From IMG/VR virus record IMGVR_UViG_3300007539_000009, positions 96,001 through 160,000 of that record: DNA of 64,000 nt, one strand, 5' to 3'. The stretch's first letter is position 1, and each line of letters begins with the position of its first letter. Both the position numbers and the translations under genes were made by a program. The DNA is from a virus. Below, in pieces: positions 237-44,963 of the stretch. Below the pieces are notes generated by a model. The model was not told the origin of the DNA. It made no database searches and saw only the letters and a program-made list of their open reading frames with translations.

Positions 237-1334
237 TCATAGACGCTTACAGAGGCGGAAGCCGCGTGAGACAGGACGTGTGGCTGCCTGCTCGAAGGTG
301 TGAGGGTGATCCGGGATGCCGTTGTTACCGCCCGGTGCGTCTACAGAAGGGTTGGTTCCTGCGTAGTCGAGCTCCGCACCAGTCTGCCCGGCATCCTCCA
401 CGACCGTTTTTGAGTTCTCAGACACGAAGTTCACGTTGTCGGGTGTGCCCGGGGTGATCTTGGTGACCTCGGAACCGTGCAGCTCAGTACCGGTGAGCCC
501 TGATGATGTGCGCGGGAAGTTGCCAATGCGCGTTTGCACGTCAGAGTCGGCCGCAACCCACTCGTCCAGCGGCTGCTCATCACCGTTACCGAGCTCCTCG
601 AACCCGGGAGGGCAGCCGCCACCCATGGACATGATGATCGCACCTTGCGGGAAGCACTCAAGCAGAGGGTCACCGAGGTACGGCAGCGCCGAGTACGCCC
701 CGAGCGTGAACGAGAACAAACTGACGTCAACTGTGGCCAGATCGCTGTCAGCCTGACGGCTAGTGCGCAGCCCCATCTTGCTCACGGGCTGGGGCACTTG
801 AACGATGGCACTGAACCGACGCCACAACCCCTCGCTCTGAGCGCGACGGTCAAGCTGCTGACCCTCGAGAGGCGTCAGAGTGAGCTCGGTACCGTCAAGC
901 CCGTACGCCACTGGCGTAAAAACATAGCCTCCCTGAGTACCTCGGTAGCTCCACGAGAAGGTGTAGACCTCCTCCTCGATCAGCGAGCTCACTTCACCGA
1001 TATAGCCAGCTTGTACCGATGCTACCTTCTCCGGCTGGAGCGGTACTTGGAAGTCAAACACCTGCGAGTTGGGGTCGGGCAGGAATGACTGCAGCAACTC
1101 AATGTTGTTGGTGCTCTGCAGCGTCAACTGCAGCCCGCGTTCAGGCCCTGCAGATAGATCCTGGTCAGTCAAGACAGCGAAGTTGTTGCTCGAGACCGCC
1201 TCAGGCAGCGACGACTCAACTGCACCAGCGATTTCCCACACCGCAGGGCGACCATCTGACTGCACCAGGTCAAAGTGGCCGTTGCGCAGCAGGTTGACGG
1301 CCTGGTACGTGCTGGTGAACCTGAGCGCACTCAT
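237..1334 (-). CDS. Virion/tail-fibre protein with galactose-binding-like N-terminus and tail-collar-like C-terminus
   Basis: N-terminal NLLRNGHFD motif; C-terminal FPQGAII..GGGCPPGFEEL..GNFPR..HPHTF..RLCKRL resembles phage tail-collar modules. Confidence 0.55.
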   Translation of the reverse strand: MSALRFTSTYQAVNLLRNGHFDLVQSDGRPAVWEIAGAVESSLPEAVSSNNFAVLTDQDLSAGPERGLQLTLQSTNNIELLQSFLPDPNSQVFDFQVPLQPEKVASVQAGYIGEVSSLIEEEVYTFSWSYRGTQGGYVFTPVAYGLDGTELTLTPLEGQQLDRRAQSEGLWRRFSAIVQVPQPVSKMGLRTSRQADSDLATVDVSLFSFTLGAYSALPYLGDPLLECFPQGAIIMSMGGGCPPGFEELGNGDEQPLDEWVAADSDVQTRIGNFPRTSSGLTGTELHGSEVTKITPGTPDNVNFVSENSKTVVEDAGQTGAELDYAGTNPSVDAPGGNNGIPDHPHTFEQAATRPVSRGFRLCKRL

Positions 1335-1759
1335 CAGTTCTTGCCTTTGGCGGCCGGTTCGATCCCCCGCATTCTCAGCCGGCCTTCCAGGCTGCGCTGA
1401 ATGTCATCAAACGGGGGCACCGGCATCAGCACCGGCTCCACCACAGGCTCCTCCTCGATCTCAGACTCAGGAGGGGGACCACCAGGACCAGCAGGGCCGG
1501 CTGAGCCCGGTATGCCAGGCGCAGGCAGCATTACCGGCTCCTCGCTGACCATCATGTCTGACACCATCGGGGGCGGCAGCTGCAGGAACAGGACGGTCAG
1601 GTCCTGGATGGTGGCGCGCAGCTCCCTGATGTCGTCGTCCTGCCGACCATTGATCACGTTGCCGCTGCTGAAGTCATGGATGGACAGGCTGACCCATCCG
1701 ATCCAAGCGAGTGCACCACCCGCTACGGTGCCCAGGAGTATCTTCGTACCTTCGTGCAT
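1334..1759 (-). CDS. Single-pass membrane protein with Pro-rich tail
   Basis: ATG at 1759; hydrophobic ILLGTVAGGALAWIGWVSL, short coiled coil, Pro/Gly-rich linker; TGATG-coupled to next gene. Confidence 0.55.
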   Translation of the reverse strand: MHEGTKILLGTVAGGALAWIGWVSLSIHDFSSGNVINGRQDDDIRELRATIQDLTVLFLQLPPPMVSDMMVSEEPVMLPAPGIPGSAGPAGPGGPPPESEIEEEPVVEPVLMPVPPFDDIQRSLEGRLRMRGIEPAAKGKN

Positions 1760-1783
1760 AGCCAATCGTCCTGAACATACCGT

Positions 1784-1820
1784 AAAAGAAAAGCGCCCGA
1801 CCATTGCGGTGGCCGGGCGC
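1784..1820 (-). terminator. Rho-independent terminator
   Basis: Minus strand GCGCCCG-GCCA-ccgcaa-TGGT-CGGGCGC followed by TTTTCTTTT. Confidence 0.85.
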
Positions 1821-1831
1821 TGATCCAGTCT

Positions 1832-1993
1832 TCAAACGAGGCGCTTCACAACTTCGTCCTGTTTCTCAGGGTCAGCCGCGTCCCGTCGGAGCTTTCCAGC
1901 CTCGATCATGGACGCTACCAGCTGATCCCTGAACGCTAGGGCCTGGGACCATTGTGCCGATTCAGACCACATCCCGGCATGGGGACTACTCAT
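1832..1993 (-). CDS. Small hypothetical protein
   Basis: ATG at 1993 overlaps the stop region of the upstream ORF; ends just before the terminator. Confidence 0.35.
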   Translation of the reverse strand: MSSPHAGMWSESAQWSQALAFRDQLVASMIEAGKLRRDAADPEKQDEVVKRLV

Positions 1994-2276
1994 CGGACTT
2001 GTAGTGCTTGAGGGTCTCTTCGATCTGCTGAATGCCGGCCTGCATGTCAGCGACGACAGCATCAATGGCTGCCAGTTGATCTGCCTTGGTGATGGTCTGC
2101 TGTCCCGCCACGATCAGCGAGTCCCGGCCACTCGCCGCGATCGTCTTGCGGGCTTCGCCTAGTGCAAGTACACGACGCTTGAGATCGGTGGCCACAACCT
2201 CCATCTCACGCATGCGCTGCTTGACGTGTTTTTCGGAGTGGGCCTGTGCTTGCTGAAACTGGTGCTCTGAGTTCAT
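1986..2276 (-). CDS. Hypothetical coiled-coil protein
   Basis: 96 aa, helical, ATGA-coupled. Confidence 0.6.
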   Translation of the reverse strand: MNSEHQFQQAQAHSEKHVKQRMREMEVVATDLKRRVLALGEARKTIAASGRDSLIVAGQQTITKADQLAAIDAVVADMQAGIQQIEETLKHYKSDE

Positions 2277-2629
2277 TCGGTATCCCTAAGGTTGGTATGT
2301 TTTGCCACTAGCTGCTGAGCGGCGTTCATGAACAACTGATTGGTGCGTTCAAAGATGACGTCGTATGCCGGGTTGAGCTCAATCTCAGCGTCGGTCCGCT
2401 CGTCATACAACGGTTTGCTGAGTCCGCGTTTGTACGCCTTGACTGTCCGCATTCGGACATAAGAGGCACGGGGGATACTGGACCTCCAGAACTGCCACCA
2501 GCGTCGTCGCGCGAGTGGCCCTACACGCACCTGGTCCAGCACGTAGAAAACGATGATGCCATCGTTGCGCATCTCACTGCCCGCGCAGGCAACTTGATAT
2601 GTGATCCAGTCCGAGTCGGTGTACTGCAT
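2273..2629 (-). CDS. Hypothetical protein
   Basis: TAGGAG Shine-Dalgarno upstream of ATG 2629. Confidence 0.65.
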   Translation of the reverse strand: MQYTDSDWITYQVACAGSEMRNDGIIVFYVLDQVRVGPLARRRWWQFWRSSIPRASYVRMRTVKAYKRGLSKPLYDERTDAEIELNPAYDVIFERTNQLFMNAAQQLVAKHTNLRDTE

Positions 2630-2697
2630 AGTTGCTCCTAAAAGCAAAGGAGTAAGAGAGAGGGGATACAGGACTCATGCCCCATATCCCCTCACGT

Positions 2698-3033
2698 TTA
2701 GACGTCGATGCGCGGGTGTGGCGCGTCTTCTGGAGCAAACCACTCGAAGTGGCCGCAGACGTGACAACGCCAAAGCTGCTCCATGCCCCGGCTTACTTGC
2801 TTCTCATCGTGCTTCCATAGATGACCACCTGAGTGGCCGCAGCGCATGCGCCGATGATAGATGCGACGCACTTCGCGCCACGCTCTGATCTCATCGACAA
2901 TTGCATCTCGCCAGATGCCTACCCAGATGTTGCTGAGTAGACGCCACAGTGAAGCAGGACGAGCCGGCCAGTTCTTCTGATGCCCTACTGGCAGCTGGCG
3001 TTTACGACCTGCGTACCACTCATACTCCGTCAT
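2698..3033 (-). CDS. Hypothetical protein with Zn-finger-like CxxxGH...CxxC
   Basis: RCGHSGGH..WRCHVCG; fills gap in operon. Confidence 0.45.
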   Translation of the reverse strand: MTEYEWYAGRKRQLPVGHQKNWPARPASLWRLLSNIWVGIWRDAIVDEIRAWREVRRIYHRRMRCGHSGGHLWKHDEKQVSRGMEQLWRCHVCGHFEWFAPEDAPHPRIDV

Positions 3034-3448
3034 CACCCTCACCTTCAGGGGTCAGGTCGAGCTCCACACCCCAATCAGGGGCGTTGATGTCAGCAATGGC
3101 CGCGCCCTTGTCCGTGATCATGAGGCCCGAGCCATCAGGACCATCTACCGTGGTTACCCAGTCACGGTCGATCAGTGCGTTGAGGATCTGCGTGGGCAGC
3201 TGCACGGGGAACTTGTAGTACTCACGCTCCTCGACTGACTGGGCTACGGCGAACTGGAAGCTGACGAACACCAGCCAGCCGATCACGCGCTGGTCGGTGA
3301 GCTCATCTTTCATTTGGAGATAGCGCTCGTGAATCCGCTCTGCCATGCCGATCGGGTTGTTCACGTCAATGGCCATGTCAGGGACAATGCCGGTGAGGAA
3401 CCCAAGGGCTTGGATGTATTGCGAGTTCAGGCTCTCTTCTTCAGTCAT
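3020..3448 (-). CDS. Hypothetical protein (wHTH-like C-terminal half)
   Basis: LIDRDWVTT..GLMITDKG wing-like motif; start inferred at MTEEE. Confidence 0.5.
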   Translation of the reverse strand: MTEEESLNSQYIQALGFLTGIVPDMAIDVNNPIGMAERIHERYLQMKDELTDQRVIGWLVFVSFQFAVAQSVEEREYYKFPVQLPTQILNALIDRDWVTTVDGPDGSGLMITDKGAAIADINAPDWGVELDLTPEGEGDDGV

Positions 3449-3734
3449 TGGTGTACGCCAGGATGTCGTTTTCACGCAGGACGAGGTAGGTATCTCCGTC
3501 TAGGTCAACTTCTAATCCAGCGTACGAGCTGATGATCACGCGGTCTCCCGCCTTCGTTGATGTAGGCAGGAAGTCGCCTGACTCCTCAGTGATTCCAGGA
3601 CCGACAGCCAGCACTGTGCCCTCTCGAGCCGGCTCCTGCAGTTGATCCGGGATCACGATGCCACAGTCCCACTCGGTGATCTTGTTGTCGAGCTTGAGGA
3701 GGATGTTGTCTCTGAGGGGCTTGAAGTCGATCAT
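3441..3734 (-). CDS. groES: Co-chaperonin GroES
   Basis: FKPLRDNILL..GIVIPD..EGTVLAVGPG..KAGDRVIISSYAGLEV..YLVLRENDILA. Confidence 0.95.
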   Translation of the reverse strand: MIDFKPLRDNILLKLDNKITEWDCGIVIPDQLQEPAREGTVLAVGPGITEESGDFLPTSTKAGDRVIISSYAGLEVDLDGDTYLVLRENDILAYTND

Positions 3735-19092: not shown

Positions 19093-22000
19093 TCAGCCAG
19101 CAACAGTAGCGACTACCTCAAAGGTAGCCTGGTTGTCAGAGTTCACAGGGATACCAGTCGGGTCGACCATAGCCATGAGCTCGACTACAGCCATCATCTC
19201 GCCATCAGGGTAGTAAGACACCGGCTCCCACTGCGTCGTGAGCGCCTCGCCGGTTACCGGATGTTTGATCTTCAGCGGCGACGTGTCAGAGTACTTGAGC
19301 CCTGCAGGCAGCGGGATCGTACCGCGTACTAAGATTGATCCGCTGTACGTCGCGGGCATGTTGATAATCAGTAGTCCGACTGTCGTATCGCCAGGACCAA
19401 TCGTGTTGAAGTTACTGTCCTGGAACGCAGCTGTGATCTCTAGTGACGTAAGTGTGTCGTCAGCACTAGGAACACCGTAATCAACAAGCCCACTCAGTAG
19501 GTTCGAGGTGTACGCACCGCTGGTAACAGCCTCGAATACGTTGTCGGCCGCGATCAAGAGGTAGATTCTGGAGCTGAGATACTCCTCTTTTGCTACGTCG
19601 CCTGAGCCGTTGATGTTGGCGTCCAGCCGCACCGGGTCGAGCTCCACTAACTGGCTGGACGAAGCCAGCGTGTTGCCGACAATCCTAGCTACACGGCAGC
19701 CGGCAACCATCAAAGCAGTCAAGCTAAATCTCGGGTCGATGAACGGCCAGGTGCTGCGATATCGGTACAAGAGATCCGCCCGAACACGGTCCCCGCTAGA
19801 GCCCACAGCTTCTCCGACGCCAGGGTTACTGACTGCGGCAAAGCTACGGTTACGCGCAGGCACATCGACTGACCAAGCACCAGTGCCGTTGGCTACACCA
19901 GACGTAGGAGCCAGATTTTCGATGTCGTTGATCCGAATGATGTTGCCCTCGATGTTGAGGTTGCCTACCTGCTGGTTGCCGCCACGGATATCAAACACGC
20001 CGTAGGCTGTGGAGCCTACCAGCTCAGGCGCGAACGTCCCGTCGAACACAGGCGGGTAGAACGTCTGACTCCCTCCAGTGACCGGGTGGACGTCGGAGCC
20101 GGGCAGCACTGGCCACGTGTTGATGAGGTTCTGGAACTCAGTAGGCAGCGGCGCACTAGGGTCGGTGGGGCCGAACGCCATGACACCCTCGACGATGTCT
20201 TGGTACGAGATCAGCGGTACCCCATCTCGATCTGTCAAGTAGACCGGCCAGTGCTCGTAGTACGCCGTGTTGTTGCGGAACGTGAACTGCGGCCCGTCGT
20301 TCACGTCAACACCGTTACCGCACATGTACCGTAGGTGACTCAGGTTCAGGTTGTAGCCAAGGCGGATGTTGTTGTTCTCGATCCGCACCTGGCCGTACTG
20401 ATGGCCTGATATGTCCACAGCCGACTCGGCGTGCGAGAGGCCCGTATCCCTGATCACGTTGTCTGTGATTAACAGCGTGCCCCACGACGGTCCGCCAGTA
20501 TCGGAAGAAATCGTTCCCGGAGCGGTCAACAGGTCCCGGTCTGGCGGTCCGAACTGGTTGCCAGTCAACCTGCTCAGTACGCGAACACCTGAACGACCAC
20601 ATAGACGGATAGTGCTGAACTCGACCAGCGTCTCATCGCCGCCTACGTTGCGCAGTTCAATGCCGTGGCGCTGAGCAATGTTGACAACGCTGCCACCGCT
20701 CCAAACGAAGTCCCAGACGTTACGGGCGGTCACGCCCCACAGAGACTCGCGGCCACCACCGTACACCAGGTTCGGGACGTTGCTCGGGTCCGGATACAGG
20801 TCGGCCACCGTCTCGTCATAGTTGGGATGGGACGGATCGCCAGGCCAACCAGGGAAGAACGGGCCACCTGGCTGATCGCCTGAGCCAACACGCAACGGCG
20901 GCCGGTTGTCATCGACCTCGAAGAAGTCTTCTCCGTCCTGCGTATTCCCTACTACCGCGTTCAGCACCGTGGCATGCGAGTAGTTGGGGTAATACACATC
21001 TGCTTCAGTCGCAGCCCCAGGGTAAATTCCGTCGTTGAACGACTGTGTTGGGAACGACTCAGGACCGCCGTATGCGTAGATGTAGAAAGGTACATCTACG
21101 GGATTGATAGCCGGGTTGCTGGGCGTGAACCGGAGTGTGATCGGTGCGCCAAACTTGCCGCTAAACGCCGAGGTCACGGCGGCGATGGAATCGGCCGTAA
21201 CTTCTAGGCGAAGCTGTGTAGCCAGCAGGCCCCCGCGCACAGTCCAAGCGGCCGGATCCTCGCCAGGCGTCGCTGCGATCACTTCCCACTGGTTGCCTGC
21301 GACAAGCGGCGTTGAATCAGCAACAGTGATACTCACCGTACCGATCGTCGAGCTGTCTAGATCAACTACGCCGTCATCATCAGTGAACTTGATGACGGTA
21401 GAGAACACCTCAGTACTCAGTCGATTAGCGCCGAACGCTGTGTTGTACGCGGCATCGCGCGGGAATACCCATACGTCACTGTGCTTGGCCACCAGCACAG
21501 CCTGCGTAGCGACCGGATACGTCACGCCGTCCCGGAACTCGAGGTTCAGTAGACGTCGAGCACGTCCATCCGGAAGCTGCGGATCATCAAACACTACGTC
21601 GAGGTTGTAGATAGCAGCCACGCTCGCACTTGTAATGCGAGCGAGCAGCATACCGCCACCTACGGGTAGCGTGATCGTATTGCCGAAGGTCAACTGCTGG
21701 TTACCAGCCGACGTAAGGAAGTTGATTACGCCTGTGCTGCCAAAGCCACCTCCGCCGATGTAACGCACAGTTGCAGTACGCCGCAGCGGATTACCCGGAG
21801 CGTTGTCGTATGTGTCGGGATCAGGGTCTCCGTAGCCAGACCAGAACACTTCGTCCGGCGCTGTGTACAGCGAGTTGTTGACGTAGTACTTCGGGTCGTT
21901 AACGTTGCTGACGCCTGCCGTGGCTGTCGGCGGGGCGAAGCCAAAGACGAAAGCATTAGGCCGTGTCCGCGACATAGGCAGCAGGCTGACGTCGAACGCA

Positions 22001-25000
22001 ACAGCGTCATCAACTTCATCCTTAGTCCAGGCAATCTTGTTTGCCGGAGCCACGGTGTTGCCTTGATCGTCGTACTGATCTTGCGCATCCTGATCAGCAC
22101 CAAGAGGGCCACGAATCCAACGGTTAGGCGCAAGGCGAACCAGCGCGTGATCCCACTCACCCAGCACAGCGCAACGATGGAACTCAAGGCCCTGCCACTT
22201 AGTAGATGACGTTCCCTGATCGATCTTGAGCGGGTTATCGTTCGTGTTGACGTTGGAGTCCTTGAGCTTGAGCACCGACACTTTGCCCGGTGTTTTGATA
22301 GCTGCAGACTCACCTGCACGGATCTTCAGGTCGTAGAAGTGAACGTGCTGGTTAGCCGTCTGATAGTCGAAGAAGATCGACGCGTCAGCGCCAGGGTCTA
22401 TGACCACGGGCTCAGGCTCTGTAGCACCCGGCGTAGCCCGAATGATCAGGGGCTCTGTCGCAGTAGGCGTATGCAGTAGCTGCACCTCCCCCGGACCATT
22501 AGAGTCCGTGAACGAGATAGCACCGTAAGCACCTGCGTCAATCTCAATGACGTCAAGCGCGCCCTTTGACCCTGACTCCTGCAAGAACACAGGCGTGCCG
22601 TCGGCCAACCCATCAGCACCATTGAGCACGCCTACTTGCCGCAACGCAGCAGCAAGCGGCTCTGTCGACGCAGTCTCCGTTGCGTCAGGTTCAGGAAGCA
22701 GGCGCTGCCACCCCGTCGGCGTCACCCGAATCGTGGCCGGGATGTCATCCTCTTCAGGGAAGGGGCCTTCCGGCACGCCGAACGGCACGACTGTCAGGTC
22801 TAGCTCGTTTGATGCGTACTGACCCGTGAACACTGCAATCTTGTAGTTAACAAGGTTCTGCAGCGCGAACGACGGCGCTACGAACGTGATAGTGCCCGGG
22901 TCGACGAACGTTGTGGGGAGCGGCACGCTACCGTTAGCAAACACAGCAACCTCGCCGTCGAAGAACGTCGTAGTCGACGCTGCGTTGATGCGAACAGTTG
23001 TATCTCCACTGAACTGCAGAATCTTGCTAGGCGACAACGACTCGATGGTCGGAGGCGGGTTCACCACCGACGCCTGTGTCGTAATCGTCACCGTCTCGTT
23101 AGGCGATAGCGACGGGCTACCTGCCCAAGTGGCTTCCAGCGTGTACAGCCCGGCGCGAGTGAACCCAACGTCTTGGGTGATAACACCGTTGGTGGTCGAC
23201 TTGAACACCTCGGACCCGCTCTCGAACGTGCCGCCGTTCGAGGTGGTACTGGCGATAGACAGCGTGATGCTGCCGGTCGCTTGAGAGTCAAGCACCGCCT
23301 GCCCCTCGAAGTCCGAATCGATGAGTTGCGACGTGATGCGGAATCCCTGGTTGTTACCTACTTCCGGCAACACGACGAGAGCGGTCAGATCAGACTCAAG
23401 CGTATCTGCGGCAAGCGGACTTGTTGCCGGGGACGGGGACGCCGATGATGGAGACACCGAGATGTACGCTACTCCACCGGACTGACCACCTCCCGGAGCA
23501 AAGTTGAGGATGCTGAACACATAAGTGCCAGCAGTGCTCAGCAATGCAGGGTCAGGGCTTGCGATAAATAGTGTCGGCGACTGGTACGTGCCCGGAATGG
23601 GGGTCGTACCGTTAACGATGACACGCGCAGACTCGTCAAACCCGGAGCCGAAGAGTGAGATCGATGACGGAGGGCTTGCGGTAGAACCAGTGCTAGGGGT
23701 GATGCTGAGCAGCGTCGGCACCGGGTTGTTCACTGTGATCGCCGCTGAGTCTTCAGTCAGCACTCCACTAGTGAACCTGACCTCATATGCTCCTCCCTCG
23801 TCGATGCGGAGATCATCGAAGATCGCAAGGCCACCGGTTGTTAGCTTTGAGGTTGTGCCGCTCAGTACGCCATCGAACGAGGTAGGCGCAAGCTGGGCAA
23901 CGATGGGGACGCCTGAGTCCTCATAGTCCGCATCGATGGTGCCTTCGTTTGTTTGCACCGATACCGCAACTGTGAACGTCTGGTTCTCGTTCAGCGACGA
24001 CTGCGGCTGTTGGTCTACAGACAACGAGATCGGCGGCGGATCAGGCGGATCGATAATCACTGACTCGCCTGTCACCAGCTGTGAGAAGGCAACGGCTACT
24101 TCCGCAAACGAGCCGACGCAGATGAAGCGCTCTACTGTGTAGCCTGCCGTGCTGACGCCGTCGGCCAGCAGCTCCTGCATCAGCAGCAGCGCGTTGAATT
24201 GACCGTACTTCTGCCCTACCGGGTTGAGCTGCCCTAAAGGAGGAAGAATCAGCGTCGACCGGACCGACGAGCTGATCACCTTATCGAGCGCGCAGATGCC
24301 TACAGCGCGCGTGCCTGTCTGGTTAGACAGGATCATGCCGCCGGGCAGGTCGCTCGGGAAGACCAGCTGATTCGCCGCAGAAAATCCTACTTCTGTAGGT
24401 CCGTCATCCCCGACAACCGGGAAGTATGTGTAGGCGCGTACAAACTCATCAGTCAGCGCCATGCTCAGCTGCGAGCGTGCCGAGCCGTCGCGGTTGGTGA
24501 GCTCGGGTGTGATGGTGCCGCGAACTCGAATGATTGACGGGTTGCCGAGGTAGTCGACTTCGACGTGCTTGTCGACACGGGCTGCACTGATAGTCAGCGA
24601 CGCACCCTGATACGAGAACGGCACGAGATACGGCATGTACACGTCCGTGCGAGCCGCCTTCTCGCCGAATTGAGAGAAGACTAGCGGTGTATCGCTGGGC
24701 TGCGTATACACCTGCAGCAGGTTGCCGCCCTCATTGACGAGGTAGCTGCCGGTGCGGTCAACGCCGCTAAACCCATACTGAGCCCCACGAGCTTTGGTCA
24801 GCGAGTTCAGTACGTTGACGCCATCCCAAGTGAGATCTGAGATAGCCCCACCAAACTCAGCCTCGAAAGTCAGCGTAGCCCGAGCGCCAACCAACGTCTG
24901 GTCACTGGCCAGCGTGCTGTGCGATACACCGTCAGGGTCAGGATCCGTCGGCTGGAGGAACCCGTCGTAGTGGTCTGAGTTGTCGAGATCGATCGACGCC

Positions 25001-28000
25001 TCTACTGCTTTCGCCCCACCGTTGAGCCGTTGCCAACCCTTCAGGCCGGAGTACGTCAGCCAGTAGTCAGGAGCAACGTAGGTGACAGCACCGGCAATGA
25101 ACTGGCCTGTGATCTCTGTCTCAGCACCGGGTCCTTCAATGTCGAAGTCCTCGTTGAAGACGACGGCATCGTTGATGTCACCAATCGCTACTTTCGCGCC
25201 TTGCAGCAGCACGATGCCTTCGCGGTCCACCGTGTGCACGTCGTACTCGCGAGGCCACAAGTCCTGCACGATGCCGTCGACGCGCCAGTCTTCTGTGAGC
25301 CCTGATCCGACCTTGGTAGCGGAGAAGCCGTTGCCTGAGTAGTCGGGGATCGTAAGGCCCCAGCCACGCCAGAAGTGGTAGACAGCCGTAAGACCGTCGG
25401 TCACTAGCGGAGATCCAGTGGTAGCCTCGACCCCGATGTTATGAATCGGCCGGGGAATGCTGAAGCTAGTCTCCAACGCTTCCGGGTTGAAAGCGTTGGT
25501 GAGCGTGATACTTGGCTGCTGAATAGCGCCGCCGACGCTGAACACGGGGCTGCCGGAAGCTACGCCGCCTATCCACAGGTCTTCGCCTGTGACATCGTTC
25601 ACCGTCAGGTCCGCTACAGGCGTATCAGGGCTAGGCGAACCGACGCCCCACAGCTCGCCATTGACGACGATCTCAGTGCGGTACCGATTGCCCAGGTCCC
25701 GATACTGGGCTGTGATCTCAAACCACTCGTTGACCGGCAGGGTGTACGTAGTAGACGCCGGCGTGATGATGGCGGTGCCATCACCGAACGGATCAGGCTC
25801 CTCGGGGGAATACTCCGGATCGTTAGGCGAGAAGAACGGGTTAGGGAAGACGTAGCTGCCGGGCGAGCCAGGATCCGGGCTAACGAACAGCCCTGACGCA
25901 CCTACCTCGAAGTACGGACGAACAACGCCTTCCTCGAGCACGTTTAGCCCGAGAGTAATCGGACCGTACGAGAAGATGACCGGCGTCTCTCCGCCAACGT
26001 AGCTGCCAGAGTTGATCTTCAGCCAAGTGCGGAACGCAAACTCCGACCCACTTGAGTAGTCAAGCGTGTTGGCGGCAGGCAATAGAGCATTAGTGACTCC
26101 TGTGTTCGCCACCTGCAGCCGGCGATCACCTGTGAGCTCAATAGCCTTACCCGTGCGGTACCCTTGGCCTGAGTCAGCGATCCAGTAGTTGCTGGGCGAC
26201 TCGTACCTAACCGCAAGGTTGCCAAGCCCGCGCTTCTCCGAGTAGCGACGAGCAAAGACTGACGACTGGTTGAGGAACTGATCGTCCCCAACGAGGTAGT
26301 GCACGCCCGGAGCGAGCGTAGCCGGAGGTTCAGTGAGCTGCGACGCTACCTCAGGGCCAAACGAATACAGGTACGGCGTGTACAACCAGCCATCACTGTC
26401 CGTCTGGTCGTTGAACTCGGCCTGAGCAATAAACGACTCACCTGCCAGCAGCGTGTTAGCCAGCGGGTTGTCGGATTGCAGCGATAAGCTCGGGCTGCCT
26501 TCGACGAGCGTAGCTGTGGTCGTATCGGCCAGCGCGCTGTTATCAGCAACCTCGTCCTCAAACGCCTCAGTGAAGACAATAGGCTGCGTCTCCGCCGGAC
26601 GGATTCGATCCAAGAACACAGCTACGTCTTCGAGCTGTGCCTGTTCCGTTGCCAGTCCCCATCGCAGCTTGACAGCGAAAACGTGATGCTTGAACACGTT
26701 CGCAAGCTGGGTGTTCAGCAGCTGGATGTTCTCGCCGACTGCTTGCGCCTGCGTCGGATCAAGCGCCTCATCTAAGTACAGGAACTGGTCGAGTGTGCGC
26801 GTCTGACGAGCCCAAACGGTGTACTCCGTTACCGAAGGTGCGAGAATACCACCGCCGTACCCGTACTGCCCGTACTGCCCGTCGCCATAGCCAATTGGGA
26901 AGGCACCGATAGTCTCAGAGTCAAACGTGACGCGTAGCGTGTGCGCATCTACGACCTCTACTACTCGTCCGTACTGCGTCGCTGCGGCTGACGACGGCAG
27001 CGTGAGGTAAGACTGCGCAGCCACCTCCTGAACCTGGACTGCTCCCACAACAGGGGACAGATCAGGCGAACTAGGAGCAGCCTTACCAGTAGGCCAGACG
27101 CAAGTGATGAGACTGCCCGAGCCAGTCGGGCTACTATTGTCGACAGCAAATGCCTCATCAAGCTCGTTCTGCCACGCAAGCGGCGCATTGACTAGCCCGA
27201 GTAGCGTGCTAAAGCCGCTCGGACTGTCGAGCAGGTTCTCGATAACAAACGGAGGCACGCTCGCAGTTGTGATGCTGAGCGAGCCGGCCGGGAACCCAGC
27301 TGTGACCGTAGAGTCGTACGACAGGTGCGTGACGTCGACGGCGCCTGTGTTAGTGGGCAGGAACGCACTCTGCTGCGCCTGCTCGAGCGTAGCAAAGCTG
27401 GTGATGCCCAGCTTGATGAGATCCCCAGCCCACACTTCTTGCTCAAAGAAGTTGACGCTGAAATCAGTCAACAGCCCAGTAGCGTTATTGAACGTAGCAA
27501 CCGTGCTCGTGAAGTTGGACGGCGTGCGCACGTCCAATCGCTTAGCGAACTGGTAATCGTCAGAGAACTGCTCAGCAAAGAACGCGAGCAGTCCAACGTC
27601 AGCAAGCTCGTCCCGATCGTACACCGTCACCAGGTCATTGACGGCGTAGAACTTAGACATCTCCTGCGGTGCGCGCAGCACACGCAGCGGCTGCTCCGGA
27701 AGCAGCGGCACTACGAAAGTAGCAGTACCGTCAGACGGTTGAACAGTCAGCCCCTGCCCTGTTGTGGTATCGACAATACCAGCGGCCGTACCTGCTTGAT
27801 CCAAGAAGGCGGATCCCAGCAGGATGCTTCCGTAGTTCTGGATCGCACTCTTAGTGGACGCACCACGGTACGCCGCGTACAGCGACGCAGTGAGCCCACG
27901 GTACTCCGCGCTCGAGTCGCGAACCAGGTCAATAGGCTCGCCCCACACCTGGGCGATGGTCTGCTCATCAACGTCCGTCTCGAAGAACCAACCTTCCTCG

Positions 28001-30003
28001 AGCCGCACGTCTGCGTACAGGAGAGTCTCATCTTCCTGCACTACCAGGTCAAAGTCACCCGCAGGTCCGTTGAGCTCGGTGTCCCACTGCGTGACGCCAT
28101 CACGGATGATGGCAACGTTGGTGATCTGTCCGCGGTAGCCGTAGTCGATGTCAACGCGCACCGGCAGGCTGTGCAGATACGCCTTTGAGTCGATGGCCGC
28201 GTTGATAGTGACCGTCAGGCCCGGAGTCAGCGCATTGTCAAACTGCACGAACTGGTCGGAGACGATCGTGAACTCTTCGGGGTCTGTGAAGACAAACCCG
28301 TCACGGAAGATCTGTACCGGATACTTGTCGCGGTCAAAGCTATCATCCAGCTTGACCGTGAACTGCTCCAGGATCGTCGGAGGGATTGTGATCTCACCGA
28401 AGATGTGCCGGTGGTTGTCTTGGGTCTCTTGGTCGACGTAGTAGATGTCGACGATGGCGCCAACCGGCAGCACTTCCGCGAACTGGATAGTGCGGCTGTC
28501 AGTGAACGTGTAACTAGCCGGCTCAACCAGCGTGGAGTCGTAGTCGAACTCTGTGTCGTCTACGAACACCTGGATGGGGAACTGCTCTTTGGGCTCGTCT
28601 GCTGCGTCGAGGGCAAAGGGCCGAGTGATCGGAACAGCCACTGTGTCGGTGGCCTCGTCAAGCACCTCACGATAGCTAGCATGGCTATGCGCTTCGACAA
28701 TCGGCGCGACCAGCTTGAACGTGACACCGTTGTTTGGGGCCCGATCGAACCCTAGAGTGGTGGCGGTCAGTGACGGGTTGAGGATGTTAGTGCCGAGATA
28801 CAGCACCTCTACCTGATCCGGGTCCACCGTCCGCTCGAGTTGAATCTTGCGGGTCGGCTTCGATACCTCAACTGTCTGAACGCCTCGTGCGTCCTTGATC
28901 CGTACTCGAGCGCCGCCGTGGAACGAATTCCCTCCGAGCAACGACAGCTCGGTAGCGGTGACGTTGACAAACTCAGCACCGAGGCGGAACCCTACGCGCA
29001 CGTCTGCTGCGACCACGGTGACGCCTGAAGTGACCGACAGCGTCAGTGTCTGACCGGCAGCCGGCAGCTCTTTGAACAGCAGCGTGTCGTCAGACAGTCG
29101 TAGCTGCAGCAGGTTGCCGGCACCGATACCGCCGAGCGGCTTCTGGGTGATGATAGGTGCCGTCGGGTCGCTGTAGTCAATGTCTAGCAGCGACAGCGCG
29201 TTGAACGACTCCAGAAACAGCTGAGCATCGACCGGGTCGTAGGTGATCGCGGTGCCATCAACTTGCGGTGTGTAGCTGGTCGTAGTGCCGTTGCTCAGCC
29301 CCTGAACGATCTGCTGATCACGGAACGCGTAAACAGAGATGCGCTCAATCTCAGCCGCAGGCGTCCACTCCTGCGACGTGTTCTCGGTCGATTGCTGGGG
29401 CTGCTCGCCCGGTGCACCCGCTCCGAGGTTACCGCTGTTGTTGACGTTGGAGCTCGCACTGCCAACAAACTCCCCGGCCAGGAACTTGGCGAACTTACCA
29501 ACAGGGTTGCCGTTTGCGTCCACTGACGCATCGAACACCAACGTCGTGCCTTGAACTAGCTCTCCGCTATCCACCCACGGCTCGAGCGAGCACGTGTACA
29601 CGTAAGTGGGCACCGCCCGTCCATCCAGCAGGACTTGTACCCGACCCTTGAGGGCGTGGTCAGGTATGCGAACGCGGTAGAGCTCGGTTACAGAGCTGTC
29701 CGCGTTGATGGTCTGATCAGCGACAGGCCAGTCCTGGAAAGTCTGCCAGTGAGCATGCGGTACCTGCAGAGACTGCCAGTTGCCAAGCTCCTGGAATACC
29801 AGAGGGTAAAACGTCTGGACAGGAACAGTCGACAGGTCACGCGCGGCATCAAGCTGAAACAGCTTCGCGTAGTCACTGTCTTGGGCGCGGATCCACGCCT
29901 CGTAAATCGCTGTGAGCTCGGGTCGATTCGCGTAGAAGTCGCGGTAGATCGACGGGAGGTAGTCGAACAGCGGGTTGGGATCGAAGGTCTTGTCGTCAGC
30001 CAC
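19093..30003 (-). CDS. Giant (3636 aa) baseplate wedge-like protein fused to LamG-like, IPT/TIG, parallel beta-helix and C-terminal RIFT-barrel-like domains
   Basis: N-terminal LFDYLPSIYRDF and RIRPAET wedge-like motifs; LamG-like about 25300-26100; two IPT repeats (NPVPTLLSITP, NPPPTIESLSP); beta-helix rungs about 19650-20760 and 22150-22550; start is GTG. Confidence 0.75.
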   Translation of the reverse strand: MADDKTFDPNPLFDYLPSIYRDFYANRPELTAIYEAWIRAQDSDYAKLFQLDAARDLSTVPVQTFYPLVFQELGNWQSLQVPHAHWQTFQDWPVADQTINADSSVTELYRVRIPDHALKGRVQVLLDGRAVPTYVYTCSLEPWVDSGELVQGTTLVFDASVDANGNPVGKFAKFLAGEFVGSASSNVNNSGNLGAGAPGEQPQQSTENTSQEWTPAAEIERISVYAFRDQQIVQGLSNGTTTSYTPQVDGTAITYDPVDAQLFLESFNALSLLDIDYSDPTAPIITQKPLGGIGAGNLLQLRLSDDTLLFKELPAAGQTLTLSVTSGVTVVAADVRVGFRLGAEFVNVTATELSLLGGNSFHGGARVRIKDARGVQTVEVSKPTRKIQLERTVDPDQVEVLYLGTNILNPSLTATTLGFDRAPNNGVTFKLVAPIVEAHSHASYREVLDEATDTVAVPITRPFALDAADEPKEQFPIQVFVDDTEFDYDSTLVEPASYTFTDSRTIQFAEVLPVGAIVDIYYVDQETQDNHRHIFGEITIPPTILEQFTVKLDDSFDRDKYPVQIFRDGFVFTDPEEFTIVSDQFVQFDNALTPGLTVTINAAIDSKAYLHSLPVRVDIDYGYRGQITNVAIIRDGVTQWDTELNGPAGDFDLVVQEDETLLYADVRLEEGWFFETDVDEQTIAQVWGEPIDLVRDSSAEYRGLTASLYAAYRGASTKSAIQNYGSILLGSAFLDQAGTAAGIVDTTTGQGLTVQPSDGTATFVVPLLPEQPLRVLRAPQEMSKFYAVNDLVTVYDRDELADVGLLAFFAEQFSDDYQFAKRLDVRTPSNFTSTVATFNNATGLLTDFSVNFFEQEVWAGDLIKLGITSFATLEQAQQSAFLPTNTGAVDVTHLSYDSTVTAGFPAGSLSITTASVPPFVIENLLDSPSGFSTLLGLVNAPLAWQNELDEAFAVDNSSPTGSGSLITCVWPTGKAAPSSPDLSPVVGAVQVQEVAAQSYLTLPSSAAATQYGRVVEVVDAHTLRVTFDSETIGAFPIGYGDGQYGQYGYGGGILAPSVTEYTVWARQTRTLDQFLYLDEALDPTQAQAVGENIQLLNTQLANVFKHHVFAVKLRWGLATEQAQLEDVAVFLDRIRPAETQPIVFTEAFEDEVADNSALADTTTATLVEGSPSLSLQSDNPLANTLLAGESFIAQAEFNDQTDSDGWLYTPYLYSFGPEVASQLTEPPATLAPGVHYLVGDDQFLNQSSVFARRYSEKRGLGNLAVRYESPSNYWIADSGQGYRTGKAIELTGDRRLQVANTGVTNALLPAANTLDYSSGSEFAFRTWLKINSGSYVGGETPVIFSYGPITLGLNVLEEGVVRPYFEVGASGLFVSPDPGSPGSYVFPNPFFSPNDPEYSPEEPDPFGDGTAIITPASTTYTLPVNEWFEITAQYRDLGNRYRTEIVVNGELWGVGSPSPDTPVADLTVNDVTGEDLWIGGVASGSPVFSVGGAIQQPSITLTNAFNPEALETSFSIPRPIHNIGVEATTGSPLVTDGLTAVYHFWRGWGLTIPDYSGNGFSATKVGSGLTEDWRVDGIVQDLWPREYDVHTVDREGIVLLQGAKVAIGDINDAVVFNEDFDIEGPGAETEITGQFIAGAVTYVAPDYWLTYSGLKGWQRLNGGAKAVEASIDLDNSDHYDGFLQPTDPDPDGVSHSTLASDQTLVGARATLTFEAEFGGAISDLTWDGVNVLNSLTKARGAQYGFSGVDRTGSYLVNEGGNLLQVYTQPSDTPLVFSQFGEKAARTDVYMPYLVPFSYQGASLTISAARVDKHVEVDYLGNPSIIRVRGTITPELTNRDGSARSQLSMALTDEFVRAYTYFPVVGDDGPTEVGFSAANQLVFPSDLPGGMILSNQTGTRAVGICALDKVISSSVRSTLILPPLGQLNPVGQKYGQFNALLLMQELLADGVSTAGYTVERFICVGSFAEVAVAFSQLVTGESVIIDPPDPPPISLSVDQQPQSSLNENQTFTVAVSVQTNEGTIDADYEDSGVPIVAQLAPTSFDGVLSGTTSKLTTGGLAIFDDLRIDEGGAYEVRFTSGVLTEDSAAITVNNPVPTLLSITPSTGSTASPPSSISLFGSGFDESARVIVNGTTPIPGTYQSPTLFIASPDPALLSTAGTYVFSILNFAPGGGQSGGVAYISVSPSSASPSPATSPLAADTLESDLTALVVLPEVGNNQGFRITSQLIDSDFEGQAVLDSQATGSITLSIASTTSNGGTFESGSEVFKSTTNGVITQDVGFTRAGLYTLEATWAGSPSLSPNETVTITTQASVVNPPPTIESLSPSKILQFSGDTTVRINAASTTTFFDGEVAVFANGSVPLPTTFVDPGTITFVAPSFALQNLVNYKIAVFTGQYASNELDLTVVPFGVPEGPFPEEDDIPATIRVTPTGWQRLLPEPDATETASTEPLAAALRQVGVLNGADGLADGTPVFLQESGSKGALDVIEIDAGAYGAISFTDSNGPGEVQLLHTPTATEPLIIRATPGATEPEPVVIDPGADASIFFDYQTANQHVHFYDLKIRAGESAAIKTPGKVSVLKLKDSNVNTNDNPLKIDQGTSSTKWQGLEFHRCAVLGEWDHALVRLAPNRWIRGPLGADQDAQDQYDDQGNTVAPANKIAWTKDEVDDAVAFDVSLLPMSRTRPNAFVFGFAPPTATAGVSNVNDPKYYVNNSLYTAPDEVFWSGYGDPDPDTYDNAPGNPLRRTATVRYIGGGGFGSTGVINFLTSAGNQQLTFGNTITLPVGGGMLLARITSASVAAIYNLDVVFDDPQLPDGRARRLLNLEFRDGVTYPVATQAVLVAKHSDVWVFPRDAAYNTAFGANRLSTEVFSTVIKFTDDDGVVDLDSSTIGTVSITVADSTPLVAGNQWEVIAATPGEDPAAWTVRGGLLATQLRLEVTADSIAAVTSAFSGKFGAPITLRFTPSNPAINPVDVPFYIYAYGGPESFPTQSFNDGIYPGAATEADVYYPNYSHATVLNAVVGNTQDGEDFFEVDDNRPPLRVGSGDQPGGPFFPGWPGDPSHPNYDETVADLYPDPSNVPNLVYGGGRESLWGVTARNVWDFVWSGGSVVNIAQRHGIELRNVGGDETLVEFSTIRLCGRSGVRVLSRLTGNQFGPPDRDLLTAPGTISSDTGGPSWGTLLITDNVIRDTGLSHAESAVDISGHQYGQVRIENNNIRLGYNLNLSHLRYMCGNGVDVNDGPQFTFRNNTAYYEHWPVYLTDRDGVPLISYQDIVEGVMAFGPTDPSAPLPTEFQNLINTWPVLPGSDVHPVTGGSQTFYPPVFDGTFAPELVGSTAYGVFDIRGGNQQVGNLNIEGNIIRINDIENLAPTSGVANGTGAWSVDVPARNRSFAAVSNPGVGEAVGSSGDRVRADLLYRYRSTWPFIDPRFSLTALMVAGCRVARIVGNTLASSSQLVELDPVRLDANINGSGDVAKEEYLSSRIYLLIAADNVFEAVTSGAYTSNLLSGLVDYGVPSADDTLTSLEITAAFQDSNFNTIGPGDTTVGLLIINMPATYSGSILVRGTIPLPAGLKYSDTSPLKIKHPVTGEALTTQWEPVSYYPDGEMMAVVELMAMVDPTGIPVNSDNQATFEVVATVAG

Positions 30004-30125: not shown

Positions 30126-32126
30126 TCAGACCTTGGTGATACTGAGATCGGTATCGGCAGCCCAGACTTGGCCCGGATCGAGAGCCAAGCGGTCTTCTGA
30201 TTCGGCGAAGACGAACGATCCAGCGCCTGTGTCGTATCGAGACCGCAAAGTCACAGGCATCGTTACGTCCTGCACATTGAACAGTGCAAGAACAGTGACC
30301 AGCTCGTTGACTGTCACTGCCTCTCCAAAGGGCTTGCCGTTGATGTACTCAGTGATGATGTCACGAACGCTCTGCAACGTGGCATCACCGGAGAACGTCA
30401 GTTCAACATCAAGGATGACGGTAACTGGCGTCTTGACTTGGATGTCTTTGGTGATGTCCCGGTTATCGGCGTTGTCTAGGAACGCCTCAATCAGCGGGAT
30501 GTCCGGGCTGGTGAGGTACGTGACCTTGATCCGGGTACCGATGAACATCGGGATCTCTGCAAGCACGTTGCCGAGGCCGTCTAGCACCGGCTCAGAGCCG
30601 TAAATCCTTAGAACATCAGAGGTTGCGGTTGTAAATCGACCACGAACCTCCTGCCGCACCAGGGCGTAGTGCGTGTCAGGCTCGAGCTCGCGGATGACGA
30701 TGTCCTCGTCAACTGCGTCCACCTGCTCAACACGCACGATGGCCTGCACCGGCTCCTGGAACCCGGTGCCGTCCTCGAAGAGGTTGACGCCGGCTGAGTT
30801 GACGAACGTAGATGTCAACGGCACTTCGCTGACATCTACATCTGCGTCGGTGGAAGCGGGCGGCAAGCTGGAGATGACAACTTCAGCCGGAGTGACGGCG
30901 GACGACTCCACGTACACGTCGACCTTGCCGCCAATGTGGAACTGGTTGGTGTTGTAGAAACCGAACAGCTGGTAGGGGTTGTCTGCTAGGTTGGTGGCCA
31001 CGTTGACCGTAGACGTGTCCTTGAACGGCCGATCGATGCGGGCCACCTTGACCGGATCTCCTCCCGGAGCAACCGGTACTTCCTCTACTCGAGCAATCTT
31101 GTAGTCGTTGTTGACGAAGTCAGGGTCGTCCTCGTTCAGCAAGCGCAACCGAAAGTTCTGTTGTACAGACACTTGCTCGAACGTGACGCCATCCTGTGTT
31201 ACCTGCAGCGCGTTGTAATTGAGACCCAGCAGGTCATACACCGCACCCACAAACCCACCTACCGGCGCTGTAATCGGGTCTCCATTGGTGTCTGTCCACT
31301 GCACGTTGCCATCAGCGTCTAGCGGCAGGTTGACCTTCTGGCAGAACGACTGGCTAAACAGCGGCTGGTCAGCCAGAGCTATCTGCGCAACGTCGCGAGT
31401 CATCAGCGGGTCGCCGAAGCCTTGGACCGACACACGCTTCACAGTCGGGAACTGGGCCAAGATCGCTGACTCAATAGCCACCGCTTTGACCAGGTCACGG
31501 TTGGTGACTGACGTCTTGATGCGAGCAAAGAGCTCAGCGTTACCTTCCGGGTTGGCCGCACCGAAGTAGGCCAGGGGATTGAAGGTGCGGAGCGCGCCAG
31601 GCACCCCTGTGACCCCAGTGACTGCGCCAGCCGCTGCCAGGTACTCATCACCGACGTCCTCGGCGATGGTGTTCACATCAACGAAAAACTCACCAGTACT
31701 GGCGATCGTGTTCGCAGCGACCGCAGCTGAGCTGAAGGTTTGACGAGAAATCGGCCGAAATCTGCGGCCGGCATCGTCTGTGAACACTACGTTGGTCGTA
31801 ACTTCCACAGCCTGTGTTGTGGCGAACACGATCCGTTGAGATCCCGTAGCTTTCTCGCCTTGGCGACGATCCACCAAGAAGTTGGCCGCGAGCCGGTCGA
31901 GCTCCTCAGGGAGCATGCCCGCGTAGTTGGCCAACGACTGGTTTCGTTGGATGACCCTCGTCTGGTCTCGGAACCGCTGGAACAACAGCGAAGCCGGCGT
32001 GATGAGGATGTCATGAACGGCAGAACCAGCGCCGACATTGAGCTTAGGTGCCTGCTCCCGCAGGACTTGTCGGACGAGGGCCTCGACGGGCACACTGAAC
32101 CGGTTCTTATCGTTGATCGTCGCCAT
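30126..32126 (-). CDS. Baseplate J/gp47-like wedge protein
   Basis: GSAVHDILI..LDRLAANF..RRQGEKATG..G.Y...G.V..NP......E.NAEL..RI. Confidence 0.85.
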   Translation of the reverse strand: MATINDKNRFSVPVEALVRQVLREQAPKLNVGAGSAVHDILITPASLLFQRFRDQTRVIQRNQSLANYAGMLPEELDRLAANFLVDRRQGEKATGSQRIVFATTQAVEVTTNVVFTDDAGRRFRPISRQTFSSAAVAANTIASTGEFFVDVNTIAEDVGDEYLAAAGAVTGVTGVPGALRTFNPLAYFGAANPEGNAELFARIKTSVTNRDLVKAVAIESAILAQFPTVKRVSVQGFGDPLMTRDVAQIALADQPLFSQSFCQKVNLPLDADGNVQWTDTNGDPITAPVGGFVGAVYDLLGLNYNALQVTQDGVTFEQVSVQQNFRLRLLNEDDPDFVNNDYKIARVEEVPVAPGGDPVKVARIDRPFKDTSTVNVATNLADNPYQLFGFYNTNQFHIGGKVDVYVESSAVTPAEVVISSLPPASTDADVDVSEVPLTSTFVNSAGVNLFEDGTGFQEPVQAIVRVEQVDAVDEDIVIRELEPDTHYALVRQEVRGRFTTATSDVLRIYGSEPVLDGLGNVLAEIPMFIGTRIKVTYLTSPDIPLIEAFLDNADNRDITKDIQVKTPVTVILDVELTFSGDATLQSVRDIITEYINGKPFGEAVTVNELVTVLALFNVQDVTMPVTLRSRYDTGAGSFVFAESEDRLALDPGQVWAADTDLSITKV

Positions 32127-43623: not shown

Positions 43624-44268
43624 TCAGTCAATGACGCGGACCTTGTTGTGCTTGGCCAGGCAGCCCTGGTGGTGCTGGATTGTGCTGAACGAGTCCTCGC
43701 ACTCGATGGGCCAAGGGTAGTACTCCTGGAGCTCCGGAAGGCGGCGACGGTTGATGTAGAGGTCTGCTGGCTCGGCGTTATGCACATCAGCCAGCAACGC
43801 CTCAGCACCTGCCGGAGTGACGTAGTATCCGTGCGCACCACCCAGGTAGCCGCCGGGCTTTGACCGGAACGCGCCGAGCCCCGCCGCAGGGATATCGAAG
43901 TAGCCGAAGCTAGGCCGAGCCAGGTTGCAGACGTGAGTGACTTGGTCCAGCTCAGCAGGCAGCGGAGCCTTGAATACTGCGTCGTGCTCTAGCACCAGAA
44001 CAGGGTATCCCTCCCTGGCAGCCTCGAGCCAAGCAAGGCGGTGCGACAAGAAGGTCGCCATGCACGGCACAGGCCGAGAATAGTTGTTGTACAAGAACGG
44101 ACGCTTGTTGAGCTTTAGCAGGTCGAACTGAGTTTCTGGATTGTCCTCAGCAGTCACTGCCGGAAGCCGTGTCACGTCTACTCCATGCTCTTCACCGCTC
44201 CTGATGCAGCGATCTGCGACTTCACACGACTTCGCGTGCTCCATCATCGTGATGACGTACGTCTTCAT
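43624..44268 (-). CDS. Glycosyltransferase family 25-like
   Basis: TYVIT..C..SH..AW..VLVLEHDAVF..GAHGYYVTP.GA. Confidence 0.85.
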   Translation of the reverse strand: MKTYVITMMEHAKSCEVADRCIRSGEEHGVDVTRLPAVTAEDNPETQFDLLKLNKRPFLYNNYSRPVPCMATFLSHRLAWLEAAREGYPVLVLEHDAVFKAPLPAELDQVTHVCNLARPSFGYFDIPAAGLGAFRSKPGGYLGGAHGYYVTPAGAEALLADVHNAEPADLYINRRRLPELQEYYPWPIECEDSFSTIQHHQGCLAKHNKVRVID

Positions 44269-44963
44269 GCGAGTGTGCTGGGGGTGTGCTGAACGGTTGT
44301 GTAGTAAGTGGTGCTTACGCCGATGTCAGGGAACAGTTGTCGGCACATGAGCGCATCATTCGGCCAGCAGCCAAGCTCTTTGGCTTTGTCGATGAGCTGC
44401 TGCGATAGCTTCGGGGAGACCATGTAGGCGCTATGACCGGCCAGCCCTTGCGGCACATGCGGCTCATCAACTTCAGGCACCGGGATGGCGAGCTCTCCGG
44501 CCTCGGCTGCCTTGGTCACCAGAGCGTGGAATACGTTAGAGCGTCGTGTAGCGCCACGAGGGTCGTTGATTCCTACAGCGGACAGGCCGCAATAGGTCAG
44601 AGGCTCAGGATCCAGATGCTTGACGAAGCGAGCATCATCCTCCAGCACGATGATCCACTCACCTGACTCCGCACTATGCTGCCACAGTCGGTAGTGCGAC
44701 ATGAAGCAAGCCATGCGCGCGTCTCGGTTGCGCGTAGCGTAGGGGTGTAGCCGCAGACCTTCGGGACCATCCTCCTCTGCGTCCCACGGGTAAGTCCAAC
44801 GCAGACCCTCGGCCTCCATCTGATCACGTACGTTGAGCGGTGTGGTAGCCTCGAACTGCGCAACAGGGAACTGGTTCCTGTGGTCTTTGTGAGACTTGCA
44901 CAACACTTCGTAGCTGGCGCAGCTGGTCCGCTGATCCAACAACGTGATTACGTAAGCGTTCAT
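44265..44963 (-). CDS. Glycosyltransferase family 25-like
   Basis: NAYVITL..ACFMSHYRLW..IIVLEDDARF..GHSAYMVSP. Confidence 0.85.
   Translation of the reverse strand: MNAYVITLLDQRTSCASYEVLCKSHKDHRNQFPVAQFEATTPLNVRDQMEAEGLRWTYPWDAEEDGPEGLRLHPYATRNRDARMACFMSHYRLWQHSAESGEWIIVLEDDARFVKHLDPEPLTYCGLSAVGINDPRGATRRSNVFHALVTKAAEAGELAIPVPEVDEPHVPQGLAGHSAYMVSPKLSQQLIDKAKELGCWPNDALMCRQLFPDIGVSTTYYTTVQHTPSTLA

Follow-up and report, generated by a model that had tools for sequence, protein, structure and literature searches.

A three-domain glycan-enzyme-like protein divided between two genes of an uncultivated phage, with a candidate docking domain at the end of a putative giant tail protein

The DNA discussed here, a stretch of 64,000 nucleotides referred to below as the window, comprises bases 96001-160000 of IMG/VR record IMGVR_UViG_3300007539_000009, a metagenome-derived linear contig of 183,184 bp from an uncultivated phage with an estimated completeness of 95 %. 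The phage appears to possess two copies of a three-domain protein resembling glycan enzymes, which would consist of a six-stranded barrel (domain 1), a β-sandwich (domain 2) and an (α/α)6 barrel (domain 3). One copy, P0002, is an ordinary single chain. The second copy appears to be split: its barrel domain is found at the extreme C terminus of the giant protein P0001, and its other two domains make up a separate protein, P0003. Rather probably, the C-terminal domain of P0001 is a non-covalent dock. It would pack into the site of P0003 that is occupied in cis by the same domain in the relatives of these proteins, and would thereby complete the fold of P0003 and mount this enzyme-like body on the C-terminal tip of P0001. 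All genes considered in this account are located on the minus strand of the window, and the three open reading frames (ORFs) concerned are present as given in a preliminary description of this DNA, with lengths of 3636 (P0001), 776 (P0002) and 1098 amino acids (P0003). The features on which the argument is built are the following:

19093-30003 (-): P0001, 3636 amino acids, a putative baseplate/tail protein with an orphan domain 1 at its extreme C terminus, encoded directly downstream of a homologue of a baseplate wedge subunit
19108-19395 (-): the orphan domain 1 of P0001 (residues ~3537-3632), a predicted six-stranded barrel of the PcRGLX_1st type and the proposed dock
49945-52275 (-): P0002, the 776-residue paralogue, in which domains 1, 2 and 3 are all present in one chain and with which the split copy is compared
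about 52027-52266 (-): the N-terminal domain 1 of P0002
52286-55582 (-): P0003, 1098 amino acids, the enzyme-like body with domains 2 and 3 only, as found with a family hidden Markov model (HMM), hhalign and AlphaFold2 (AF2)
54572-55555 (-): the central β-sandwich of P0003 (residues ~10-185 and 322-337), as judged from secondary structure, the predicted local distance difference test (pLDDT) and HMM domains
52340-54565 (-): the (α/α)6-barrel region of P0003 (residues ~340-1081), as judged from the AF2 model and structure matches

In pairwise comparisons, the similarity among the C terminus of P0001, P0002 and P0003 is at chance level. BLASTP aligned the C terminus of P0001 with the N terminus of P0002 with 13 identities over 36 positions, corresponding to an E value of 0.016 as a single comparison and of 0.85 when all ORFs of the window were searched, and it aligned residues 22-85 of P0003 with residues 98-175 of P0002 with an E value of 0.094. 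Word-index searches with the proteins returned only the proteins themselves. The resemblance of the C terminus of P0001 and of P0003 to P0002 was confirmed by profile methods and a genome census. An exhaustive HMMER search with P0002 among 1.84 billion proteins yielded 191 relatives at E<=1e-3, mostly of 700-880 amino acids. A family HMM was built from the 150 listed relatives of these 191 and scored against every ORF of the window, where it matched three proteins only, i.e., P0001, P0002 and P0003. The match in P0002 extended over positions 1-776. In P0001, residues 3549-3621 matched profile positions 10-76 (40.9 bits, E 1.4e-12), and hhalign aligned the last 135 amino acids of the protein with the family over residues 4-83 of P0002 (96.9 %, E 1.7e-10). 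Thus, the correspondence between the last ~100 amino acids of P0001 and residues ~1-90 of P0002, which had been proposed by eye, is real, and the domain, at about 19108-19395, lies essentially where it had been placed (19093-19390). A resemblance noticed by eye can, therefore, be genuine even when BLAST scores are at chance level. P0003 matched the family HMM with an E value of 3.2e-64 from profile position 91, corresponding to its residue 7, over positions 91-651 and beyond, and hhalign (99.8 %) started at residue 94 of P0002, corresponding to residue 10 of P0003. Hence, P0003 indeed starts where domain 1 ends. A 212-amino-acid ORF outside the window (G000:C1:72529-73164, plus strand) also gave a match to the family HMM, over profile positions 49-151, which is probably due to chance (E 0.009, 11.5 bits).

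For the census, an HMM of domain 1 only was built without P0001 and P0002 and searched against the 2,529 ORFs found in the six frames of the entire 183-kb genome. Exactly two copies were found, one at the N terminus of P0002 (66 bits) and one at the C terminus of P0001 (45.4 bits, E 8e-13), and there was no match in P0003. The genome thus contains two copies of domain 1 and two enzyme bodies, of which one domain and one body are orphans. The orphan domain 1 stops 4 residues short of the stop codon of P0001. It tiles the family together with P0003 without overlap, and when the two pieces are joined, the connection is ~4 residues longer than the consensus linker. Homology and exact complementarity of the two pieces are thereby established, and the earlier claim that the C terminus of P0001 and P0003 amount to one complete copy, encoded ~33 kb apart, is upheld by the tiling and the census. 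Both halves have also kept residues that are invariant in the family, which are, in the numbering of P0002, Q49 in domain 1 and G138, R409, D489, H492, R495 and R558 in the body. P0003 retains G55, R485, D609, H612, R615 and R684, among which G55 and D609 are near-invariant, and the P0001 domain retains the near-invariant residues P24, P38, P40 (a P and a PxP motif), Q65 and E82 in the numbering of the last 110 amino acids.

Other possible sources of a domain 1 for P0003 were considered and rejected. The 769-amino-acid protein encoded immediately upstream is helical and did not match the family HMM. A β-rich insert within P0003 was considered as a cryptic domain 1, but the domain-1 HMM found nothing there. 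Finally, P0003 might have retained the N-terminal strand of P0002, but hhalign assigned this strand to the P0001 domain.

The preliminary description had compared the module with the N-terminal barrel of PcRGLX/YetA-type proteins. PcRGLX is an exo-rhamnogalacturonan lyase of family PL26 from Penicillium chrysogenum (PDB 5XQ3 and 5XQO), which is represented in Pfam, as part of the PcRGLX/YetA-like group, by PF19501, PF21345 and PF21346. The comparison holds for the fold and fails for Pfam membership. The three Pfam models did not match the C terminus of P0001, P0002 or P0003 even at E values up to 10, they matched 0 of 46 relatives, and a six-frame search of the whole genome with PF19501 was empty. 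Likewise, searches of Pfam, PHROGs and NCBIfam found nothing in P0001, P0002 or P0003, and PDB sequence searches with the three proteins gave no match. Thus, as far as models can tell, the three proteins are related to PcRGLX at the fold level only.

The structural evidence is of two kinds. For the complete copy, the ESM Atlas model of P0002 (predicted template-modelling score, pTM, 0.84) resembled three-domain clusters with PcRGLX_1st/2nd/3rd or GH127 with template-modelling (TM) scores of 0.62-0.68, and an unannotated cluster from Planctomycetota with a TM score of 0.85. For the split copy, AF2 modeled the last 110 amino acids of P0001 with a pLDDT of 89.3 as a domain of six strands. The best match of this model among 48,161 PDB representatives was with residues 23-112 of 5xq3_B (Z 5.0, root-mean-square deviation 4.1, 81 residues aligned), a top rank that barely exceeds the immunoglobulin-like entries next in the list, and its nearest folds in the ESM Atlas were dominated by clusters carrying PF19501 (TM 0.54-0.69). 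The AF2 model of P0003 (pTM 0.75) has a confident core with low-confidence inserts at residues about 186-321 (~135 amino acids, the β-rich insert mentioned above, which interrupts the sandwich), 531-607 and 861-1030. It aligned with residues 108-927 of 5xq3_B over 486 residues (Z 9.3); hits of similar Z cover the (α/α)6 barrel only, and the alignment with 5xq3_B is by far the longest. VIA matches of P0003 to (α/α)6 glycan enzymes had Z scores of 8-9.7. Foldseek searches of the PDB gave no match at E<=0.001 for the model of the P0001 domain or that of P0003, the top match of P0003 being 5xqo_A with an E value of 5e-3. As residues 23-112 of 5xq3_B correspond to the P0001 domain and residues 108-927 to P0003, the two pieces also tile a solved structure. 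The models show the order of domains of the PcRGLX/PL26 fold, i.e., an N-terminal barrel, a β-sandwich and an (α/α)6 barrel. The phage proteins would thus have the three-domain fold in common with PcRGLX, albeit with modest Z scores, and they differ from it in that PcRGLX is one chain, whereas the phage copy is spread over two genes and lacks membership at the sequence level. From this fold, P0002 and P0003 may be supposed to have glycan-degrading, possibly lyase, activity.

A complex of residues 1-890 of P0003 with the last 110 amino acids of P0001 was predicted with alignments supplied for both. The interaction prediction score from aligned errors (ipSAE) was 0.86 (0.87, 0.86 and 0.85 in the separate runs), as compared to 0.00 for the best of three controls. 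Among solved complexes, 58 of 80 attain the mark for this score, as do 2 of 110 mismatched pairs, a calibration that is rough only, since own alignments were used here. The pLDDT of the partners was at least 85, and at least 91 % of the contacts were common to the runs. The predicted interface comprises ~170 contacts, in which the sandwich of P0003 takes part with residues 53-58 and 90-93 and its barrel with residues 342-384, 467-469, 624-628, 697-702 and 772-778. The contacts with the lowest predicted error connect the Glu of the VVE motif and the PLP motif of P0001 with W625-N628 of P0003, all of which belong to motifs that are conserved in the family, and the invariant Gln of domain 1 with the P0003 loop around the near-invariant G55. 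Positions in the interface are more family-like than the other aligned positions, both in P0003 (mean BLOSUM 1.38 vs. 0.47, permutation P 0.0014) and in the P0001 domain (1.63 vs. 0.79, P 0.028). An interface between the two halves, as anticipated in the preliminary description, is thus found in the prediction, and the model suggests that P0003 and the P0001 domain bind each other. For the proposed non-covalent dock, it is the prediction and the conservation of the interface that stand, and binding itself is a property of the model.

Since the record is a metagenome-derived linear contig, the split could in principle be an artefact, produced by an assembly chimera or by a frameshift that falsely truncated one gene or joined it to foreign DNA. 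This is scarcely credible. An identical P0003 with the same neighbours is present on 11 contigs, which stem from several samples and were built with several assemblers, and an identical P0001 with the same neighbours on a second, independent contig of 183,154 bp. As both loci recur unchanged in independent assemblies, a chimera, which had been named in the preliminary description as a possible source of error, is excluded, and the genome arrangement is reproducible. Moreover, base composition and the GC content at third codon positions (GC3) are uniform across the junctions, and the family HMM matched neither the ORF downstream of P0001 nor that upstream of P0003.

The relatives of the family show how the domains are usually arranged. 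Domain 1 is present at the protein's own N terminus in 117 of ~150 relatives; the short ones, whose starts fall at arbitrary points, are apparently fragments. Closest to the P0001 domain are P0050, P0149, P0015, P0010 and P0025, a list that overlaps with that for P0003 (P0050, P0015, P0010, P0080, P0011 and P0025), whereas the nearest relative of P0002 is P0006. In trees, P0002 falls within a well-supported clade (0.91-0.97), and both orphan pieces fall outside of it. P0050, P0015 and P0010 are encoded by stand-alone, full-length genes (~800 amino acids) on phage-like contigs, one of which is 174.6 kb in length, while in another one the gene is located near a tape-measure gene. On the contigs with P0050 and P0015 (L001-L006), these closest full-length phage relatives are encoded at the end of a block of genes for Thy1, an RNase H-like exonuclease, DUF7694, WDGH and an Acb2/Tad1-hairpin protein rather than in a tail module. 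Searches of GenBank phage records with P0002, P0050 and the N terminus of P0001 gave no match, no close relatives were found in viral contigs, and in the literature on PcRGLX-type or RIFT-barrel phage proteins and on tail-fiber gene fission nothing relevant was found. The correlation of similarity profiles between the P0001 domain and P0003 (rho 0.33, P 6e-4) was dropped as a test of shared origin. It was given no weight because the positive control, i.e., domain 1 of P0002 compared with its own body, failed (rho 0.03).

Several observations weigh against the proposed docking. Its main rival is that the two proteins do not interact. According to this view, which we consider doubtful, the P0001 barrel acts alone, as a glycan-binding or capping domain or as the remnant of a C-terminal module that had been complete, P0003 was independently truncated at its N terminus and works alone, and their complementarity is a historical coincidence. 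There are ESM Atlas clusters with the second and third domains of PcRGLX in which only 24 % of the members carry the first, and so the two-domain form might work alone; a cluster of 130 amino acids contains the first domain only. Neither the relatives nor the viral contigs searched included another genome with this split, and therefore conservation of the arrangement cannot be demonstrated. The outcome of the complex prediction may reflect memory of the single-chain fold, because the single-chain structure (5XQ3) has been solved and many relatives have been predicted. If so, it demonstrates compatibility of the halves rather than binding, and the tool itself warns that such a pass tends to occur with the two parts of a gene that has been split. 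The motifs at the interface may owe their conservation to catalysis instead of docking. A shared origin of the two pieces is only weakly signalled, as the short P0001 domain has a poorly supported position in the domain-1 tree and the positive control of the profile correlation failed. Furthermore, in two of the three contexts, the genes surrounding the nearest full-length relatives are non-structural phage genes, and hence the family is not established as virion-borne. Finally, P0001 has no baseplate domain of its own that library searches could detect. Over all of its 3636 residues, it has no match in Pfam, PHROGs, NCBIfam, PDB sequences or GenBank phages, with the lone exception of a sub-threshold match to Beta_helix (E 0.65). 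The only evidence for P0001 as a baseplate component is synteny with the phrog_6 wedge gene, which suggests that the protein may be located in the virion, at the baseplate. Against a mere coincidence, however, the two domain boundaries agree within a few residues, orphans are limited to a single domain and a single body in the genome, both halves have kept the invariant residues lying opposite one another in the predicted interface, and domain 1 is in cis in 117 of ~150 relatives, the short ones being fragments with arbitrary starts. For these reasons, a dock formed by the C-terminal domain of P0001 is the reading that we prefer.

A different history would lead to the same complex. An ancestral gene for ~4700 amino acids, encoding the giant protein fused to a complete three-domain module, might have been split at the border of domains 1 and 2 by a rearrangement, after which the halves complemented each other in trans, as the preliminary description had suggested. 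This would fit the tiling of the family by two pieces that are joined just ~4 residues over the consensus linker, and two relatives, P0152 (1315 amino acids) and P0103 (1031 amino acids), do have long N-terminal extensions. However, these extensions are unrelated to P0001, no protein of 2000-6363 amino acids carrying domain 1 was found, and the nearest relatives of both halves are the stand-alone phage genes described above. In addition, P0003, which is encoded on the same strand as P0001, lies 33 kb upstream of it and adjoins the paralogue P0002, an order that simple fission does not give. No scar is visible at the DNA level, where the junctions show chance 8-10-mers only and uniform GC3. A search for a fused form among the relatives was negative, and we consider a split of a single ancestral gene improbable. 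With relatives that stand alone at ~800 amino acids, no giant form and P0003 upstream beside its paralogue, transfer is favored over a fused ancestor. Thus, it is likely that a segment encoding domain 1 was duplicated or transferred onto the giant gene and lost from the enzyme gene, and less likely that a giant ancestral gene underwent fission.

Docking could, in addition, function as a switch, in which case P0003 would lack stability or catalytic competence as long as it has not met the C terminus of P0001 and would be active only on the virion. The idea derives from the invariant Gln and Glu of domain 1, which in the model are packed directly onto the body motifs of highest conservation. It is an unlikely extension of the docking model, but, if true, it would represent a natural split enzyme whose complementation is coupled to tail assembly.

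Phages are known to mount tailspikes and depolymerases non-covalently on their baseplates via adaptor domains, as in CBA120 (TSP1-4), G7C (gp63.1/gp66) and K1-5/SP6. In these systems, an N-terminal anchor forms part of the enzyme and attaches to a docking site of the structural partner. The proposed arrangement is similar in that a separately encoded enzyme-like protein and a structural tail protein are connected by a small dedicated domain. It differs from them in that the enzyme fold itself would supply the anchor, as a domain carried by the structural protein, and docking would complete the fold. No homology of the tailspike adaptors to P0001 or P0003 was seen. Natural split proteins are known as well, such as the products of gene fission that reassemble, and donor-strand complementation occurs in chaperone-usher pili. 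As in these cases, two polypeptides would rebuild the architecture of single-chain relatives. In contrast to them, an entire domain rather than a strand would be complemented, one half is fused to an unrelated protein of 3,500 residues, and the halves are encoded 33 kb apart instead of adjacently. If the docking model is correct, the adaptor would be one of the enzyme's domains that was moved to a structural protein, which would constitute a new route for phages to modular and exchangeable tail enzymes. It would also provide a natural example of protein complementation at the level of domains, which could be reused as a docking pair, and the PcRGLX-like fold family, which is absent from cultured phage records, would become a candidate source of phage glycan enzymes.

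One other family member was considered as a second example of the split. At 555-3190 (+) of a 3.5-kb high-GC metagenome contig (L012), the coding sequence is broken exactly at the border of domains 1 and 2 by a GTGA overlap with a -1 shift (1139-1142), and again by an in-frame TAG inside a conserved helix (2777-2779). Since a -1 shift combined with an in-frame TAG on a contig of 3.5 kb makes a pseudogene or an error more likely, it was rejected as such. The breaks may stem from decay to a pseudogene, from an error of assembly, from recoding or from a second split, in this case an adjacent one.

The genes surrounding those for P0001, P0002 and P0003 in the window include the following:

57891-55582 (-): a helical protein of 769 amino acids, first in the order of transcription and followed by P0003
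43624-49498 (-): an array of nine genes for proteins of 160-270 amino acids, directly 3' of P0002, two with glycosyltransferase matches
30126-32126 (-): a 666-amino-acid homologue of a baseplate wedge subunit (phrog_6, E 8.7e-14)

The ATG of P0003 overlaps the stop codon of the gene for the 769-amino-acid protein. Downstream of the nine-gene array, virion genes are followed by those for the 666-amino-acid wedge homologue, P0001 and a protein of 470 amino acids. The two matches in the array are to glycosyltransferase family 25 (GT25) at 44265-45023 (E 7e-11) and, weakly, to GT8 at 46239-47042 (E 8e-4). Because of these matches in the adjoining array, P0002 and P0003 may belong to a glycan-related block of genes rather than a purely structural one. 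Two genes downstream of P0002, a gene for 162 amino acids (49010-49498, minus strand) has a weak precomputed match to Cpn10/GroES and may encode a putative phage co-chaperonin.

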